Virus record (IMG/VR): IMGVR_UViG_3300044946_000048
Coordinates: 24,620-88,619 of that record
DNA from: a virus
Length of the DNA: 64,000 nt
Direction: 5' to 3' (one strand)
Shown here: in pieces, positions 40,616 through 52,609 of the stretch
Layout of the letters: each line of letters begins with the position of its first letter
Numbering within the stretch: the first letter of the stretch is position 1
Notes under the pieces: model-generated
What the model was told of the DNA's origin: nothing
Databases searched by the model: none
Seen by the model: the letters and a program-made list of their open reading frames with translations, nothing else
Program-made: the position numbers and the translations under genes

Positions 40616-41395
40616 GTGTTTGAAAAAATTGCCGTCGGCATAAAAACATTTCTGCGAGACGCCAAGCTGTTTAAGGCGGTCGAGGGAATTCGTACCAATA
40701 TGCCGGGGGCTCAGATCATCATCGCAGACGATGGTGATATGGCACATGAGAAATATAACCTATACTCCGATCTTGTCCTTTGCGGGCACAAGGTCGGAGT
40801 ATATTCTTTTGATTCCGGTTTCGGATTCAAGAGTAACATGATCGTCAATATGCTCGATAGGCCGTATCTTTTAATCGGCTCAGATGATTTCGACTTTACG
40901 CCCAAGGCAGCCGAGGGAGTGAAGACGATGATCGATATTATGGAAGAGAATCCGTGGGACCTGGATATTCTAAGCGGACGGCTGAATGGACGAACCTACG
41001 AATTCTTTCTAGAAGACCTAGGGGATACTATCATCGAGCACAAGGCAGACACAAATTTTAAAATGAACGGAACCCGGCCTCTTGTATACCGGGTTGATCT
41101 GACTGTGAATTATAGCTTGATTCGCCGAGACGTGTTCAAGCAAGTTAAGTTTGATAATGAAGAGATTATCGGAGAAGGCGGGCATGGAGCATTCTTTGTG
41201 GACTGCAAGCGTGCAGGACTCAAGGTAGGATTCACACCGCTGGCAGAAATTAATGAGCAGGATCAGCCGGAAGACAGTGCTCGGTACAAACAATTCAGAG
41301 CGCGAGCACACAGCCCATCCCGGAAGACATTCGATAGGCGGGGAATTAAACGATACGTTTTGGGATCAGGAAAGGTTGATTATGATTGTCGTTAA
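40616..41395 (+). CDS. GT-A (GT2-like) glycosyltransferase
   Basis: IKTFLR, IIIADDG, DSG, SDDF motifs; GTG start 1 nt after the Ro60 stop. Confidence 0.85.
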   Translation: MFEKIAVGIKTFLRDAKLFKAVEGIRTNMPGAQIIIADDGDMAHEKYNLYSDLVLCGHKVGVYSFDSGFGFKSNMIVNMLDRPYLLIGSDDFDFTPKAAEGVKTMIDIMEENPWDLDILSGRLNGRTYEFFLEDLGDTIIEHKADTNFKMNGTRPLVYRVDLTVNYSLIRRDVFKQVKFDNEEIIGEGGHGAFFVDCKRAGLKVGFTPLAEINEQDQPEDSARYKQFRARAHSPSRKTFDRRGIKRYVLGSGKVDYDCR

Positions 41396-42020
41396 ATCCT
41401 GTCATCGTGATCGTCTGCGAGGCTGCCATCAAATCATACGCGAAACCTGGGGTAAGGATGCAGAGGTTCGTTTCTTCATGGGTGGTGAAACCACAGATGC
41501 TCTCATGGTGGACGAAACTACTTTAGATTGTCCAGATGACCACGAAGGCTTGCCATTTAAAACAAAAGCAATGTGTCAATGGTTGAAAGATAAAACAGAT
41601 TATGCATTTTTCTGCGACAATGACACGTTTCTCATTCCTCGTCGCTTACTAGCATGCGGCTATGAGAAGTATGATTACGCGGGTAAGATTGATGTTCTCG
41701 GTAAACCCGGCCAGCCTAGAAGCTATAAAGATTGTAGAGGAATTCTTATACCGCAGTGCTATCCGTTTGCAAGCGGAGGATTTGGATATTGGTTGAGTAA
41801 AAGAGCAATGGAATTAGTGGCGTCCCAAGTGCCAACAACTTGGGCTGAAGACATCTTTGTCGCCCAAGTCACAGGTCCTGAGATTCAGGCGGGCAGAATG
41901 ACAGGCTATAACATTCCAAACTTTCCTAATAAAATATCCTGGCATTTTATCAAGAGGCCAGGAGCAGGCTACGAGCCGTTCAACGGCTGGCAGAAAAAGC
42001 TGTACGAGGAAAACAAGTGA
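41382..42020 (+). CDS. GT31/Fringe-like glycosyltransferase
   Basis: IRETW, RFF.G, LP.KT, CDNDT, FASGG.GY.LS, AED motifs. Confidence 0.85.
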   Translation: MIVVKSCHRDRLRGCHQIIRETWGKDAEVRFFMGGETTDALMVDETTLDCPDDHEGLPFKTKAMCQWLKDKTDYAFFCDNDTFLIPRRLLACGYEKYDYAGKIDVLGKPGQPRSYKDCRGILIPQCYPFASGGFGYWLSKRAMELVASQVPTTWAEDIFVAQVTGPEIQAGRMTGYNIPNFPNKISWHFIKRPGAGYEPFNGWQKKLYEENK

Positions 42021-42706
42021 AGCTGTTAGTCGCGGTTAAAAGCTGCAATCGAGACAAGGCGAATGGCTGCCACCAAGCTATTCGTGAGACGTGGGGCAAA
42101 GACTTCCCTGCTAACGTTGACGTTCGATTTTTCGTGGGCAGCGGTGGTCTGTCCGATGATTGGCTTCTCACGGATGAAATACGAGTTAATGCAGACGATA
42201 CTTTAGTTGCGCTACCAGTAAAAGTACGAAAAATGGCTGAATGGTCCGTTGAGCACGGGTATGATTATTCTTATTTCTGTGATGTGGATACGTTCGTAAT
42301 TCCGAAGAGACTGCTGGCGAGTGGCTTCGAGAACTACGACTACTTTGGGCGGTTCATGATTTCCGGAGTTCCGCAATTAATAAAAGATTTCAAGGACGGA
42401 CGACTAGGAACGGTCCATAACGTTTGGAACTATGCATCCGGCGGAGTCGGATATTTCTTAAGCTATAAGGCAGCTGAATTAATTGCTACCATGATACCCG
42501 TGCACTACGCAGAAGATTTCTCAGTCGGACAAGTGCTTGGGCCACTGACAAATTCAGGTGAACTGAAAGTTGCATACCCACCGAAGTTTGATTTGTATTG
42601 CGCCTGGCATTATTGCACGTGGGGCAAGACCAGGTATTGTTGGCCTAACAGTGTTGGCTTTAATCCTCAGTGGATGCGGGATAGTTACAAGAAAGGACAG
42701 CCGTGA
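42017..42706 (+). CDS. GT31/Fringe-like glycosyltransferase
   Basis: IRETW, CDVDT, YASGG.GY.LS, AED motifs. Confidence 0.85.
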   Translation: MKLLVAVKSCNRDKANGCHQAIRETWGKDFPANVDVRFFVGSGGLSDDWLLTDEIRVNADDTLVALPVKVRKMAEWSVEHGYDYSYFCDVDTFVIPKRLLASGFENYDYFGRFMISGVPQLIKDFKDGRLGTVHNVWNYASGGVGYFLSYKAAELIATMIPVHYAEDFSVGQVLGPLTNSGELKVAYPPKFDLYCAWHYCTWGKTRYCWPNSVGFNPQWMRDSYKKGQP

Positions 42707-50173: not shown

Positions 50174-50763
50174 GAGATATAGAATTTAGTCGCGGGACGT
50201 ATCGTCGGTTAACTCCGAACAAAGTCGTGCACAATCAAGACGGAACCACGTGCGTGGTTCTCGAAAGAAAAAGCGGCCCACATCTCATCTGTATTATTGA
50301 TACATCAATCTACGATTGGATTAAAGGATTTCGTTGGTCGGTTTATCGAGCAGCGGCAGGTAAAACGTACTACGCAAAAACTGCCGTTCGTAAACCAACA
50401 GGGCAACAAACAACCGTATATATGCAAAATTTTGTACTTCCTGACATCGATGAAGTCGATCATAGAAATGGAAACGGTTTAGATAATAGACGAGAAAATT
50501 TGCGACCTGCAACTCACTCTCAAAATATGGCTAATAGAAAAAAGATTGAGGACACTTCGTCTAGATTTATAGGCGTGCATTGGAGAGAAGACATACAGAA
50601 ATTTCGGGCGCATATTTCTGTCGATAGGAAACGCATTGATCTAGGACATTTCGACGACGAAATTAAGGCTGCCAAAGTGCGAGATAAAAAAGCAAAAGAA
50701 ATTTACGGAGAGTTCGCAAAATTGAATTTTCCGAATATCGTTGTCGGAGAACAACCGTCATGA
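50170..50763 (+). CDS. HNH-AP2 homing endonuclease
   Basis: [17 protein letters not shown] plus C-terminal AP2 domain (SRFIGV.W...LG.F..E..AA...GEFA.LNF). Confidence 0.9.
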
Positions 50764-51710
50764 AAAAAGTTTTAATTACGGGAATTTCAGGACAATGTGG
50801 GTCGTACTTATCCGAACTTCTTTTAGAAAAAGGATACGAAGTTCATGGCATTATTCGAAGACATAGTACTCCAGCGACAAGCAGAATCGATCATATTTTT
50901 AATAGCCTACAATTACACTACGGAGATATGACAGATGCTATGTCTATTGAGAATGCCATCAATATTATTAAGCCAGATGAAATCTACGGGTTAGCGGCGC
51001 AATCTCACGTGCGAACCTCATTTGACATTCCGATATATACCGCCCAAGCTACAGCTATAGGAACCTTGAATATTTTAGAAGCTATTAAAGGTAAAGGCAT
51101 TAAATTTTATCAAGCGAGCAGCAGCGAACTTTTCGGAAAGTCTCCAGCACCTCAATCTGAAACGACGCCCTTCTATCCTCGCAGTCCATATGCAGTTGCA
51201 AAACAATTTGCTTATTGGTCAGTGGTGAATCATAGAGAGGCATATGAAACGTTCGGATGCAACGGAATACTTTTCAATAACGAATCTCCGCGACGAGGGC
51301 CTACGTTCGTAACACAAAAGATTGTCAAGGCTGCTTGCAACATCTTTAAAGGCACGCAGGATAAACTTTACCTCGGGAACCTTGACTCTAGACGGGATTG
51401 GGGGTATGCTAAGGATTACGTGGAAGCAATGTGGTTAATGCTTCAGCAAGAGAAGCCAGACGATTACGTAATCGCTACAGGCGAGCAGCACTCGGTTCGG
51501 GAATTCCTCGACTTGGTCTTCGGAAGATTGAACCTAGACTGGCACAAGTACGTTGAAATCGATCCCAGGCTCTTCCGGCCTACCGAAGTGGATTCTCTCT
51601 TGGGCGATCCATCCAAGGCGATGAAAGTTTTGGGGTGGAAACCAAAAACGAACCTTAATAGCTTGGTAGAAATCATGGTCGAAGCAGAACTGTACGGAGA
51701 AACACGATGA
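50760..51710 (+). CDS. gmd: GDP-mannose 4,6-dehydratase
   Basis: [51 protein letters not shown]. Confidence 0.95.
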
Positions 51711-52609
51711 TACTAGTTACGGGTGGACACGGATTCTTAGGGCAGCATGTTTTGCATGCACTGAGAGCGAACGGGCATCGGGATTATTTTGCTCCGACTC
51801 ACGGGGCGTTCGACCTACGTAAACAGGCAGATGTTCGAGAACTGTTTCTATACTCAAAGCCTTCGATTGTGATTCATCTTGCCGCAAATGTCGGCGGTAT
51901 TGGCGCAAACATGAAGACCCCCGGTCAGTTCTTTTACGACAATGCCGTTATGGGAATCGAATTGATGGAACAGGCTCGCGTATTCGGTGTGAATAAGTAT
52001 ATCCAGGTAGGAACAACTTGTTGTTACCCGAAACTTACGTCCATCCCTTTTAAAGAAGAGGATATCTGGAATGGATATCCAGAAGAAACAAACGCCGGAT
52101 ATGGAATTGCAAAGCGAGTACTCCTAACCCAGGCAGAAATTTATAACAAGCAGTACGGCATGAACATAGTATCCGTGATTCCGACGAATCTTTACGGACC
52201 AGGAGATAATTTCAACCCAGAAAGTTCGCACGTCATCCCTGCGTTGATTCGCAAGATGGTAGAGAATCCGAGAGGAACAGTTGACGTGTGGGGAACTGGA
52301 CGGGCTACTAGAGACCTGCTATATGCCAAGGATGCAGCCGAAGGCATCGTGCTCGCGATGGAGAAATACGATTCCGCTCAACCTGTCAATCTAGGATCAG
52401 GCGATGAGATAAGCGTTCAGAGCATCGTTCAGGCACTAATCTCTCTTACTGAATTTAACGGTTGCATAAATTGGGACTCAACTAAGCCAGACGGTCAGCC
52501 TCGACGTTGCATGGATATCACCAGAGCAGCAACCTTCGGATGGGCTCCGAAGACGCCGTTAGTTCAGGGTTTAAGGCAGACAATCAAATGGTATAAGGAG
52601 AATCGATGA
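51707..52609 (+). CDS. fcl: GDP-L-fucose synthase
   Basis: [27 protein letters not shown]...[15 protein letters not shown]. Confidence 0.93.

Follow-up and report, generated by a model that had tools for sequence, protein, structure and literature searches.

A glycan-synthesis island in an uncultured soil phage: gene content, variability and candidate acceptors

Our analysis supports the view that a region of about 12 kb in the genome of an uncultured soil phage encodes a self-contained set of enzymes for making a fucosylated, methylated glycan in the cytoplasm. It comprises seven glycosyltransferase (GT) domains (one GT12/GT2-like, one GT2-like, four GT31 and one GT11), two FkbM methyltransferases, an HddA-like kinase, GmhA, a short SDR, a GT75 protein, Gmd, Fcl and a homing endonuclease. 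We tentatively read the island as one allele of a hypervariable phage-borne cassette for glycan assembly which would act in the host cytoplasm, and whose acceptor would most likely be a structural protein of the phage; we hold this reading at a little under an even chance. A pathway of this kind had been proposed in the preliminary description of this DNA, and the soluble proteins, Gmd and Fcl, the GT11 domain and the two FkbM methyltransferases agree with it.

Layout, phage origin and variability of the island

The island occupies positions 40616-52609 of the 64,000-nucleotide stretch analysed here (the window), part of a viral contig in IMG/VR that measures 88,619 bp and is about 83% complete. 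ORF and family analysis places 15 genes back to back on the plus strand without a break. From GT2a to SprT, 13 of the 16 consecutive junctions are overlaps of 4 to 22 bases, and the largest gap measures 11 bases. The stop codon of the preceding Ro60 gene lies 1 base from the GT2a start, with no terminator between them. The best sigma-70-like match 5' of the string formed by the Y RNAs, Ro60 and the island is at 39001-39030 on the plus strand (TTGACA-18-TAGAAT, 11/12, a consensus match only); transcription of the whole string might possibly start here, and no convincing terminator was found between this match and position 53031. None of the island proteins contains a membrane helix, the highest 19-residue Kyte-Doolittle mean being 1.33, and a genome-wide scan placed all segments of at least 1.8 outside the island, in agreement with the earlier statement that it lacks a flippase, a polymerase or any obvious membrane protein.

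The record carries phage genes for terminase, portal, DNA polymerase, primase, helicase and RNR, while tail genes are seemingly missing from it at its present completeness. The island resides among early/middle replication genes, outside the structural module. The genes at 36050-37862 and the Mpe-GH108 gene, which flank it, are conserved in two related loci, L004 and L005, whereas a third, L034, has only the upstream flank in common; the terminases of L004, L005 and the L034-bearing contig are related (35-44% identical). All three relatives have sugar genes at this locus that differ from those of our phage; the ones lying between the flanks in L004 and L005 encode an FnlA-like and an RmlD-like protein, an SDR-FkbM fusion and a C-methyltransferase for sugars. 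The island is also held by three further soil runs, and a near-identical variant on a contig of soil run X2 has position 46276 joined to 46855, so that methyltransferase b is exactly missing. As the flanks are conserved in relatives, the island is, judged from its sequence context, phage DNA and not a misassembly of host DNA, a concern that the soil-run variant counters as well. Ro60 and the Y RNAs are missing from the L004 and L005 locus while the GT cassettes are still there; thus, the adjacency of this unit and the cassette in our phage looks like two independent insertions into one variable region.

Parts of the cassette recur more widely. Of the 30 IMG/VR loci that were fetched with a GT11 query, 7 have GT31 next to GT11 or fused with it, unrelated phages of 93-265 kb being among them, and GT2a completes a trio by standing beside GT31/GT11 in L004, L005, L006, L012 and L035, the loci in which GT2a homologues were found. 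The extra domains of GT31-family fusion proteins are exclusively GTs (GT2, GT6, GT32-like), consistent with an assembly line. Among 185,579 species genomes, scanned with two peptide patterns only, the GT31-like family appeared on just two contigs of one MAG, and one of these carries a terminase and is a phage contig. This near-absence from cellular genomes suggests that the family is specific to viruses and was not taken over from the surface loci of hosts; nor did the scan show any lysogeny-linked spread among bacterial genomes.

Enzymes of the island

All enzyme families named in the preliminary description, from the two GT2-like domains to Fcl, were recovered at the positions given there, with one change of function described below. 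The GDP-fucose genes stand at the end of the island. Gmd, a GDP-mannose 4,6-dehydratase (50760-51710), passes the TIGR01472 equivalog cut-off (463 bits against 415), and in the PDB it scores 342-421 bits with GMDs compared with 110 bits for the GDP-heptose 4,6-dehydratase of C. jejuni (7us5). Fcl/GMER, the GDP-L-fucose synthase (51707-52609), has NF047922 as its best model at 273.6 bits, under the cut-off of 500, and its top 18 PDB matches are all GDP-L-fucose synthases (best 216 bits).

The GT75 protein (49118-50173; Pfam RGP 24.4 bits, cut-off 23.8) had been listed as a GT75-like domain. The domain is indeed present, but we do not read it as a glycosyltransferase, as its closest match is MtdL, a donor-making GDP-sugar mutase (structures 7xpu, 7xpr and 7yua; E 1e-43 over residues 72-339). 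Mapped against MtdL (PMC9937993), the protein keeps the DDD motif, the equivalents of Arg159, Asp195, Gln229, Arg257, Asp260, His287, Arg289 and His292, and that of the GDP-linked Ser86. The equivalent of Ser228 is Cys and that of Asp87 is Pro, the latter position being P, I, V, C, E, Q or R across 22 aligned relatives. In MtdL, D87N and D87S abolish activity on GDP-L-fucose (PMC9937993), and the substrate may therefore be other than GDP-fucose. The protein is best read as an NDP-sugar pyranose-furanose mutase of the MtdL/Hyg20 type, and its similarity to MtdL together with the linkage to Gmd and Fcl suggests that the three probably supply a furanose donor, e.g. GDP-L-fucofuranose.

A heptose branch is indicated by the HddA-like GHMP sugar kinase (46856-47806), of the D-glycero-D-manno-heptose 7-phosphate kinase type, and the GmhA-like sedoheptulose-7-phosphate isomerase (47800-48381; SIS_2, 52.8 bits). 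The kinase has both the N- and the C-terminal Pfam GHMP_kinases domains, HddA as its best NCBIfam model (132 bits, under the cut-off of 600) and the heptose kinases 3k85, 4usk and 4n3o as best PDB matches; for the isomerase the best model is TIGR00441 gmhA (106 bits, under 209). They are accompanied by an epimerase/reductase-like short SDR of 253 aa (48360-49121; Pfam Epimerase 97.6 bits; top NCBIfam match GalE, under cut-off), whose L012 copy, 59.5% identical, also adjoins HddA and GmhA. Neither GmhB nor a nucleotidyltransferase was found in this record (about 83% complete), and PF00483 nucleotidyltransferases were absent from five related records, so that by gene content the branch is two steps short of completion.

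Among the transferases, GT2a (40616-41395) matched no Pfam family. In the PDB, B4GALNT1 was matched by sequence (E 7.7e-7), and human B4GALNT1 was also the best fold (E 6.5e-16, TM 0.72) for the AlphaFold model (pLDDT 84.9); as modelled, GT2a is a B4GALNT1-like GT-A enzyme, GT12/GT2-like in class. For GT2b (45619-46281) there was no Pfam, NCBIfam or PDB sequence match and no homologue in the compared loci; in the ESM Atlas it lies closest to GT2 clusters (score 0.99), most of which are viral.

The GT31-like domains comprise a (41382-42020), b (42017-42706), c (43531-44280) and d (44277-44975), of which only d passes the Pfam Galactosyl_T cut-off of 23, at 24.7 bits. Domain b reaches 21.9 bits, and domain a gives sub-threshold Fringe and Galactosyl_T matches, aligns with the GT31 family and retains the DxD and ED motifs. 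In the modelled structure of b (pLDDT 91.4), solved GT31 enzymes make up essentially all top Foldseek rows, with B3GalT6 (E 2.4e-12), B3GNT2, B3GalT5, chondroitin synthase, C1GalT1 and Manic Fringe among them, and this predicted fold confirms the family assignment; metagenomic homologues of b are 79% and 86% identical. Domain c begins at about 43531 and forms the C-terminal half of a 525-aa fusion (42703-44280), whose N-terminal half is alpha-1,2-fucosyltransferase-like (Glyco_transf_11 93.3 bits, cut-off 23.9, residues 96-274) and contains HVRHGDY, which we take to be the GT11 donor motif. Domain c aligns to the GT31 family and is 51% identical to d. Both have lost the first Asp of DxD and may thus be altered or inactive. 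In the tree, c and d are sisters (fork support 100/100), while a and b fall into separate clades; a single recent expansion giving rise to all four copies is therefore rejected.

FkbM methyltransferase b (46278-46859) scores 29.5 bits with Methyltransf_21 (cut-off 22.7). The weaker FkbM-like methyltransferase a (44972-45607) remains below this value at 18.9 bits; in the ESM Atlas it lies closest to viral FkbM clusters (0.97), and the L008 island holds a homologue that is 50% identical. One gene had escaped the earlier list, an HNH-AP2 homing endonuclease (50170-50763; HNH_3 32.6 bits, AP2 20.6 bits) between the GT75 gene and gmd. With the island's minimum GC3 (0.343), it is an insertion which stands outside the pathway.

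Proposed pathway and candidate acceptors

From these families we infer how the linkages, the sugars beyond fucose, the host's contribution and the acceptor might fit together. Gmd and Fcl would convert host GDP-mannose to GDP-L-fucose, and the GT75 enzyme would isomerise some of the GDP-pyranose pool to a furanose, in the simplest case to GDP-L-fucofuranose. The heptose branch would be fed by GmhA together with the HddA-like kinase and short SDR, and a host phosphatase and nucleotidyltransferase would finish it. The seven soluble GT domains would assemble an oligosaccharide stepwise, its core being laid down by the conserved trio of GT12/GT2-like, beta-1,3-type GT31 and alpha-1,2-fucosylating GT11 enzymes and extended by the other GT31 and GT2 enzymes, and the two FkbM methyltransferases would O-methylate the sugars. 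If a phage structural protein is the acceptor, progeny virions would bear a strain-specific glycan coat, as in chloroviruses and some actinobacteriophages.

We rank virion proteins first among the acceptors, at slightly less than one half, followed by a host envelope glycan and then by DNA. Across six islands, this one and five others, we found neither an initiating membrane phosphoglycosyltransferase nor a flippase or polymerase, which we count in favour of a virion-protein acceptor, as we do the Ser/Thr-rich tracts in three large structural proteins of the phage. The latter argument is weakened, since such tracts are common among tail fibres. The replication-side position and the sigma-70-like promoter match speak against a virion acceptor, as they would also fit modification of the host surface or of DNA.

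Less probable, though it is the strongest competitor, is a role in remodelling, while infection proceeds, a glycoconjugate of the host envelope, be it O-antigen, LPS core, EPS or the glycan of an S-layer or flagellin. On the inner side of the membrane, the phage GTs would use intermediates that are lipid-linked or of the lipid A-core type, host flippases, transporters and ligases would export the product, and superinfection would be blocked or progeny kept off debris. The islands' lack of an initiating transferase, flippase, polymerase, ligase or Gtr-type membrane protein argues against this; yet O-antigen and LPS-core transferases are likewise soluble or peripheral and work on lipid acceptors, so host lipid-linked acceptors are compatible with it. 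Bacterial surface-polysaccharide loci typically carry GT11, Gmd/Fcl, GmhA/HddA heptose genes and FkbM methyltransferases, and the hypervariable locus resembles O-antigen loci. A heptose branch that needs host GmhB and nucleotidyltransferase suits a heptose-making Gram-negative host, to which the GH108/PG_binding_3 endolysin points as well, and the island is, by its predicted host-type promoter, probably expressed with the early genes. Moreover, cyanophage GT clusters have been read as serving cell-wall modification (PMC12801897). On the other side, seven GT domains suggest that a whole oligosaccharide is built and not an existing one masked, and the two-pattern scan of species genomes, with its virus-specific GT31-like family and no sign of lysogeny-linked spread, does not favour an envelope role.

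We consider it improbable that another target receives the glycan, such as RNA, a small molecule, or a protein of the host or a non-structural one of the phage. The Y RNA/Ro60 unit, so close to GT2a, invites the idea of a glyco-RNA, but L004 and L005 retain the cassettes in its absence. GT75 and enzymes for C-methyl and O-methyl sugars are typical of antibiotic-type natural-product pathways (MtdL, Hyg20; PMC9937993), yet the window showed no genes for making an aglycone (PKS, NRPS, aminocyclitol).

Still less likely is hypermodification of phage DNA, in which a hydroxylated or hydroxymethylated base would be glycosylated and the chain extended and methylated as a guard against restriction, along the lines of T-even phages and of the MT/5mYOX/GT clusters known from metagenomic phages. 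According to Pyle et al. (10.1101/2023.12.21.572611), phage GT-A/GT-B enzymes that resemble LPS/teichoic-acid enzymes put mono- to trisaccharides (hexose, HexNAc, heptose) on 5hmC. Our phage has a DNA-methyltransferase-like gene (21363-22370, PHROG match), a dNMP-kinase-like gene and, between the RNR and DNA polymerase genes, a further GT-B/GT4-like gene apart from the island, the island lies inside the replication-side block, and type IV restriction as diversifying selection could also explain variable cassettes. However, hydroxymethylating enzymes are absent, which makes DNA unlikely: at E <= 1 this record has neither a Tet_JBP dioxygenase nor a thymidylate-synthase homologue, Tet_JBP occurs in none of five related island-bearing records and ThyS in one of them (the 265-kb phage), about 30 kb off its island, while such pathways are, as Pyle et al. 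emphasise, normally clustered; all island-bearing records are incomplete (42-83%), so that the absence of an enzyme is no proof. In addition, the modelled GT31b fold is that of GT31 enzymes and not of the TarP/JGT class treated there, and known DNA-bound chains extend to three sugars, compared with seven GT domains here.

Comparison with known systems

The proposed glycosylation of virion proteins has a close counterpart in the chloroviruses, for which PMC5408694 describes GMD and GMER, soluble GTs that are expressed early, a methyltransferase domain, and glycosylation of the capsid protein in the cytoplasm. Like PBCV-1, our phage has a virus-encoded, cytoplasmic set with GMD, GMER, several soluble GTs including multi-domain fusions and a sugar methyltransferase for a fucose-containing methylated glycan, early expression being predicted here. 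In contrast, chloroviruses infect eukaryotes, their genes are scattered and of different GT families, and they have neither the set of four GT31 domains, GT11 and GT75 nor the heptose genes; their acceptor, Vp54, is proven, whereas a virion-protein acceptor is a proposal here. Similarly, pairs of GTs and methyltransferases in mycobacteriophages and other actinobacteriophages are tied to virion glycosylation, on capsid and tail-tube subunits, in PMC13313380 and PMC12619734 (citing Freeman 2023). As described there, the GTs of such a system number from one to a few, the hosts are actinobacteria, and a nucleotide-sugar pathway of comparable size is lacking.

The T4-like cyanophages S-SCSM2R, P-SSM2 and Sf-CH8 have in common with the island long runs of soluble GTs (GT11 and GT2 among them) and sugar-nucleotide genes. 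The cultured cyanophage Sf-CH8 groups its GT75 homologue (31% identity) with genes for a phosphoheptose isomerase, for nucleotidyltransferases and for GT11, all side by side, and also has a methyltransferase and a dehydratase (PMC12801897, Table 1); the reading of these clusters as LPS/cell-wall modification genes is a literature interpretation. They belong to other phage lineages and hosts, encode the nucleotidyltransferases that are missing here, and differ from the island in its GT31-like gene, which was found in none of 50,697 GenBank phage records. The GT75 protein resembles MtdL and Hyg20 of the A201A and hygromycin A pathways in its Mn2+ ligands, catalytic Arg, most sugar/phosphate-binding residues and linkage to a GDP-fucose pathway; it is a predicted enzyme which departs from them at Asp87 and Ser228 and lies in a phage glycan cassette instead of an antibiotic pathway. 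With MT/5mYOX (TET)- or ThyS-dependent DNA glycosylation clusters, as described by Pyle et al. and Lee et al. 2026, the island shares surface-polysaccharide-type GT-A enzymes, sometimes several in a row with epimerases, but the base-hydroxylating enzyme that defines them is missing from the record and from its relatives, the GT fold class differs and the GTs are far more numerous. Finally, serotype-converting prophages (Gtr, O-acetylases) provide a further example of a phage-encoded glycan change. Their systems depend on membrane proteins of the GtrA/B/C type; the island, unlike them, has no membrane proteins and would build its glycan de novo.

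Enzymes of the sugar island

The island between positions 40616 and 52609 comprises 15 genes, all on the plus strand, whose products were assigned by Pfam, NCBIfam and PDB sequence searches, by two AlphaFold models compared in Foldseek, and through the ESM Atlas. It opens with a GT-A enzyme (GT2a, 40616-41395), for which Foldseek gave human B4GALNT1, a GT12 enzyme, as the top solved match (E 6.5e-16, 23-25% identity), followed by two proteins with GT31-like domains (GT31a, 41382-42020; GT31b, 42017-42706), a protein composed of an N-terminal GT11 half and a C-terminal GT31-like half (GT31c; 42703-44280), and a further GT31-like protein (GT31d, 44277-44975). 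Next come an FkbM-type methyltransferase which scores below the Pfam threshold and is supported by the ESM Atlas (a, 44972-45607), a GT2-like protein recognized through the ESM Atlas only (GT2b, 45619-46281), and a second FkbM-type methyltransferase identified by Pfam (b, 46278-46859). The remainder consists of an HddA-like GHMP kinase (46856-47806), nearest to the heptose kinases 3k85, WcbL and C. jejuni HddA, a GmhA-like protein (47800-48381), an SDR of 253 aa (48360-49121), a GT75 protein (49118-50173), a homing endonuclease with HNH_3 and AP2 domains (50170-50763), Gmd (50760-51710) and Fcl (51707-52609). PDB sequence searches with GT31a and GT2b returned no matches. Family searches, folds and the ESM Atlas thus bore out the enzyme content listed in the preliminary description, and its statement that the island encodes no membrane protein also held: hydrophobicity over 19-residue windows nowhere exceeded 1.33 in the island proteins, and the few TM-like segments of the genome all lie elsewhere. 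The homing endonuclease gene, which that description had overlooked, is located between the GT75 gene and gmd, overlaps each by 4 bases and, at 0.343, is lower in GC3 than any other gene of the island.

The AlphaFold model of GT31b (pLDDT 91.4) suggests a GT31 fold, the closest solved folds being GT31 enzymes ahead of any other family; B3GalT6 ranked first in Foldseek (E 2.4e-12, TMq 0.71), and ranks 1-37 among the matches listed are occupied by B3GalT6, B3GNT2, B3GalT5, CHSY3, C1GalT1 and Manic Fringe. The Pfam Galactosyl_T/Fringe gathering score is passed by one of the four copies, GT31d (24.7 against 23), and many homologues carry a precomputed PF01762 assignment. The DxD motif is intact in GT31a and GT31b, and its first Asp is replaced in GT31c and GT31d. 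A single recent tandem expansion of the four copies is ruled out by a tree of 27 sequences, in which only GT31c and GT31d are sisters (51% identity, 100/100 support) and GT31a and GT31b fall into separate clades, each nearer to the copies of other phages. Long members of the family are fusions with further glycosyltransferase domains (GT2, GT6, GT32-like) as the only partners, and they offer no clue to the acceptor. The GT11 half matches Glyco_transf_11 with 93.3 bits (cut-off 23.9) and contains HVRHGDY, which we take to be the GT11 donor-binding motif.

Gmd exceeds the equivalog cut-off of TIGR01472 (463.4 bits against 415) and is, as judged from its scores of 342-421 bits to GMDs in the PDB versus 110 bits to the GDP-heptose dehydratase 7us5, a true GDP-mannose dehydratase; the same scores exclude a 6-deoxyheptose enzyme of the DmhA/DmhB type. 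Fcl, whose gene overlaps gmd by 4 bases, has NF047922 as its top model (273.6 bits, under the cut-off of 500), and its best 18 PDB matches are all GDP-L-fucose synthases. The four-enzyme set for GDP-D-glycero-alpha-D-manno-heptose (GmhA, HddA, GmhB, HddC) is incomplete in the record, which is itself ~83% complete. The GmhA-like and HddA-like proteins are both present, both under their equivalog cut-offs, and PF00483, PF01467 and the GmhB model TIGR00213 had no match at E <= 1 in the record, the control profiles for these searches being matched in 12-14 of 14 genomes. PF00483 was also absent from all five related island-bearing records, among them G005, where the same SDR-HddA-GmhA trio is present, its SDR being 59.5% identical to that of the island. 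Thus, these phage cassettes apparently rely on the host for sugar-1-phosphate activation.

The only PDB relatives of the GT75 protein are four sequence variants of MtdL (E ~1e-43, residues 72-339). In the pathways to the antibiotics A201A and hygromycin A, according to the available text of PMC9937993, MtdL and Hyg20 convert GDP-L-galacto- or GDP-L-fucopyranose to the corresponding furanose and back. The MtdL residues described there were mapped by a HMMER alignment and a 22-sequence alignment of relatives. The GT75 protein keeps the equivalents of Asp109-Asp111, Asn112, Arg90, Arg159, Asp195, Gln229, Arg257, Asp260, His287, Arg289 and His292, its DDD at 102-104, RGYP and H..R..H aligning with Asp109-111, Arg159 and His287/Arg289/His292, respectively. 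Predicted counterparts of the Mn2+ ligands of the family (the third Asp of the DxD and a conserved His) and of the catalytic, autoglycosylated Arg159 are therefore in place, as is that of Ser86, a residue whose replacement by Asp stops MtdL from binding GDP (PMC9937993, available text). The protein is very probably an active Mn2+-dependent NDP-sugar mutase using a GDP-sugar. Hence, the GT75 family noted in the preliminary description is indeed present, and given the MtdL match the protein is best read as being of the mutase and not the transferase type; a role as self-glycosylating primer or transferase was set aside.

While the likeness to MtdL lies in the equivalents of the Mn2+ site and Arg159, there are two departures, Cys at Ser228 and Pro at Asp87 (Pro80), the latter position being occupied by P/I/V/C/E/Q/R in the 22 aligned environmental relatives. 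In the accessible portions of PMC9937993, activity of MtdL on GDP-L-fucose needs the sugar-site aspartates Asp87, Asp195 and Asp260, and D87N and D87S kill activity on GDP-fucose; the GT75 protein keeps the second and third of these aspartates. As the Asp87 equivalent is missing, the claim that the protein shares the substrate of MtdL is lowered, whereas that of a GT75 mutase is unaffected. GDP-L-fucose is the obvious candidate substrate because gmd and fcl follow the GT75 gene with only the homing endonuclease gene between, and because an Fcl-like gene precedes the GT75 homologue in one of the compared loci (L003). A heptose substrate is also conceivable, since the homologue in Synechococcus phage Sf-CH8 adjoins a phosphoheptose isomerase, nucleotidyltransferases and GT11.

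The island as a variable phage locus

The DNA carrying the island is that of a phage. The linear IMG/VR record (88,619 bp, ~83% complete by CheckV), of which the window is the right-hand 64 kb, has structural ORFs including terminase and portal on the minus strand in its first 24 kb, and primase, RNR, DNA polymerase I and helicase on the plus strand upstream of the island. No GenBank phage has a DNA polymerase more than 38.6% identical to that of this phage, the nearest being those of Xanthomonas and Xylella siphophages, and the runs holding island DNA are soil metagenomes. Searches of 10 structural ORFs against PHROGs gave portal, terminase, an endonuclease, one weak connector match and nothing more. 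Apart from a tyrosine-recombinase/integrase-like ORF (61289-62257; phrog_1, E 2.7e-24), the phage looks lytic, with its own replication genes and many tRNAs, and a scan of 185,579 species genomes revealed no integrated copy of the island family.

Of the 16 consecutive junctions between GT2a and an SprT-like gene, 13 are overlaps of 4-22 bases, and the widest gap is 11 bases. The top sigma-70-like match of the region (11/12) is at 39001, upstream of a Y RNA/Ro60 unit, and no convincing terminator was found by consensus scan from there up to 53031. The close packing and the consensus scans therefore suggest that the whole gene string could be one transcript. The Y RNA/Ro60 (TROVE-vWA) unit (39001-40614) stops a single base short of the first glycosyltransferase gene. 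Ro60 and Y RNAs occur at this locus in our phage only and in neither of the related loci L004 and L005; the adjacency looks like two separate insertions into one variable region, and functional coupling to the glycosyltransferases is judged unlikely because of these relatives.

A GT11 query recovered 30 IMG/VR loci. The contigs of three of them, L004 (91 kb), L005 (72.6 kb) and L034 (99.9 kb), belong to relatives of this phage, with helicases 54-64% identical in L004 and L005, a DNA polymerase 56% identical in L005, and terminases 35-44% identical (43% for L034). Homologues of the genes at 36050-37862 are found in all three, and an Mpe-GH108 endolysin pair in L004 and L005, where these genes and the pair flank the sugar genes on both sides. 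Between the flanks, the ~5 kb of L005 encode GT31, GT11, a protein of unknown kind, an SDR-FkbM fusion and GT2a; among the genes in the ~13 kb of L004 are those for a dehydratase of the FnlA/CapD type, an RmlD-like reductase, a sugar C-methyltransferase and Gmd. Three independent soil sequencing runs (X2, X3, X4) contain related DNA, 85-99% identical, in 28-29 of the 30 bins into which 36000-55000 was divided. X2 contigs span both island borders, and one joins 46276 to 46855, so that methyltransferase b is precisely gone. Thus, the island is a stable yet evolving phage component. Host-derived misassembly, which the preliminary description had considered, is ruled out by the conserved flanks, the even GC (0.41-0.51 across the island, 0.479 for the genome) and the X2 contigs bridging both borders. 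The sequences provide evidence that the locus is a fixed site holding a swappable sugar-gene cassette. The X2 variant lacking methyltransferase b is ~90-97% identical across the island; in X2, 242 bases at 40609-40852 are also replaced by 755 others, and 690 bases at 36579-37270 by 738 others.

GT31 adjoins or is fused to GT11 in 7 of the 30 loci, including contigs from unrelated phages (93, 142, 148 and 265 kb), often in the company of GT2a, FkbM, Gmd and Fcl, and no TM segments were predicted in the island ORFs of the six loci examined. The GT31-like family has 370 cluster representatives at E <= 1e-30, and its 139 close members in a set of 5.8 billion proteins are all unnamed or called 'Galactosyltransferase' only. 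Neither tblastn of GT31b against 50,697 GenBank phage records nor megablast of the island against GenBank phages gave a match. Among the species genomes, GT31-like sequences were found on two contigs of one MAG only, in a scan by two peptide patterns that would overlook divergent members. The GT31-like sequences appear to form a viral branch within a family familiar chiefly from animals. The MAG is titled 'uncultured archaeon' and its two contigs hold L034 and L035. The former contig, C59, combines a GT31/GT11/Gmd/Fcl island with the related terminase mentioned for L034, and another contig of the MAG, C38, has a terminase 33% identical to ours. C59, at least, is apparently phage DNA that was binned with an archaeal MAG.

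A conserved family of ~310-355 aa lies downstream of GT11 in five islands (L004 10657-11724; L006 11891-12904; L008 12965-13897; L009 12024-13022; L034 12448-13362), its L004 member having no Pfam match; in the window, where this family is missing, GT31c is instead fused to GT11. A second family of ~180 aa recurs in L005, L006, L008, L010 and L012. A comparable island is present in the cultured cyanomyovirus Sf-CH8 (L037; PV340853.1, record 126176-137761), with a dehydratase, a methyltransferase, heptose kinase/adenylyltransferase fragments, a phosphoheptose isomerase, a nucleotidyltransferase, GT11, further glycosyltransferases and a GT75 homologue annotated 'hypothetical protein'. This phage is a tractable system for determining what such islands glycosylate.

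Possible acceptors of the glycan

Three targets of phage glycosyltransferases, DNA, host surface glycans and virion proteins, are named in the available part of PMC12619734. We tentatively favor virion proteins, at somewhat less than an even chance. The cassette is self-contained, with virus-encoded soluble glycosyltransferases, in numbers sufficient for a whole oligosaccharide, and sugar-nucleotide enzymes; an initiating phosphoglycosyltransferase, flippase, polymerase and ligase are missing from all six islands, the GT31-like family looks virus-specific, and the chlorovirus capsid machinery described below is closely similar. Three large structural-region ORFs of 840, 1120 and 467 aa, outside the window on the minus strand (G000:C1 142-8597), have Ser/Thr-rich tracts (43-50% over 30 residues), a weak pointer to glycan attachment, since such tracts could carry O-linked glycans or simply be fibre linkers of the ordinary kind. 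When 327 ORFs from 12 loci and the window were clustered, no shared cluster emerged as a nameable non-enzyme candidate for the acceptor.

Action on host envelope glycans, which we rank second and as less probable, would agree with soluble glycosyltransferases being the rule in O-antigen and core assembly, with the reliance of the heptose branch on host enzymes, and with the island position and promoter match, which suggest early expression; cyanophage clusters are interpreted in this way in the available text of PMC12801897. Other targets are improbable. Phage DNA is the least likely acceptor: although the replication block has methyltransferase-like, dNMP-kinase-like and separate GT-B-like genes, and base-modifying enzymes may be divergent or encoded in the missing 17%, homologues of Tet_JBP (PF12851) and thymidylate synthase (PF00303) are absent from the ~83% of the genome at hand, PF12851 is found in none and PF00303 in one of five relatives (far from the island; all records incomplete), and, in the accessible text of Pyle et al. 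(bioRxiv 10.1101/2023.12.21.572611), DNA-glycosylation pathways are normally clustered with base-modifying enzymes and the GT-A class is TarP/JGT-like, GT31b resembling neither.

A GT-B/GT4-like protein is encoded at 28228-29256, between the RNR and DNA polymerase genes, where the relative L005 has a 144-aa ORF only. It matches Pfam GT4-conflict and Glyco_trans_1_4 below threshold and a PHROG glycosyltransferase weakly, with no significant PDB sequence match (one at chance level, E 0.39) and no PADLOC match, and could be a DNA- or nucleotide-directed glycosyltransferase; the PADLOC scan of 8 proteins returned no families. At 15311-16583, a dNMP-kinase-like ORF (PF21448, weak) adjoins a YfbR-like 5'-deoxynucleotidase ORF (weak), a pair that hints at unusual-nucleotide handling, yet in a record with no thymidylate-synthase or TET homologue.

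If virion proteins are the target, the notion of virus 'serotypes' would extend to environmental phages, with a bearing on stability, adsorption and immune recognition; if it is the host surface or DNA, the cassette would represent a new route of superinfection exclusion or anti-restriction. With any target, the alpha-1,2-fucosyltransferase, beta-1,3 transferases, furanose mutase and sugar O-methyltransferases are useful candidates for glycan synthesis.

Proposed pathway and relation to known systems

The analysis shows which enzyme families are present, that the proteins are soluble and how closely the genes are packed, and the linkages and sugars that follow are read at the level of families. 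Gmd and Fcl would convert host GDP-mannose to GDP-L-fucose, and the GT75 enzyme would make a furanose donor. The B4GALNT1-like enzyme may act ahead of GT31 and GT11, the GT31 enzymes adding beta-1,3-linked residues and GT11 adding alpha-1,2-fucose onto a beta-galactoside. A GT31 galactosyltransferase would feed GT11, and the conserved adjacency or fusion of the two might be explained because the GT31 product would be the GT11 acceptor. The FkbM enzymes would O-methylate the sugars. The cassette is a compact, all-soluble and probably co-transcribed set that could be reconstituted in E. coli, and a phage GT75 mutase beside Gmd and Fcl suggests that rare furanose donors are made by phages.

It might be speculated, with considerable doubt, that many uncultured soil and freshwater phages carry a swappable 'virion serotype locus' with a virus-specific GT12-like/GT31/GT11 trio as its core, and that the cassette coats the particle with a strain-specific methylated, fucosylated, furanose-containing glycan, possibly with L-fucofuranose or heptofuranose. 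Cassette exchange would then diversify virion surfaces as O-antigen loci diversify bacteria. Because the locus is fixed, the sugar genes are exchangeable and a natural variant lacks one methyltransferase, the data suggest that selection acts on glycan identity.

In animals, GT12-like, GT31 and GT11 enzymes are the family order that builds fucosyl-ganglio/H-type glycans, and the order in the island resembles it, as a resemblance only. To our knowledge, glycan clusters of cyanophages have been on record for some two decades with their function never tested, and virion glycosylation has been demonstrated only in a few actinobacteriophages and giant algal viruses. Among the open-access papers and preprints listed, none dealt with what GT31 or GT75 does in phages or with phage-made fucofuranose. 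Gtr-type serotype-converting prophages are characterized by a membrane-embedded flippase, bactoprenol glycosyltransferase or serotype-specific glycosyltransferase, whereas the island proteins have no hydrophobic window of at least 1.4. A close parallel is provided by chloroviruses, with GMD, GMER, soluble early glycosyltransferases, a methyltransferase and cytoplasmic capsid glycosylation (PMC5408694, available text). As cyanophage glycan clusters, virion glycosylation in actinobacteriophages and chloroviruses, and the GT75 mutases of actinomycete antibiotics are all known already, the island does not amount to a novel type of system. Its novelty lies in combining four GT31 domains, GT11, a B4GALNT1-like glycosyltransferase, two FkbM enzymes, GT75, Gmd/Fcl and part of a heptose branch within a single operon-like string, in the apparently viral GT31-like family and in the evidence of an exchangeable cassette locus.
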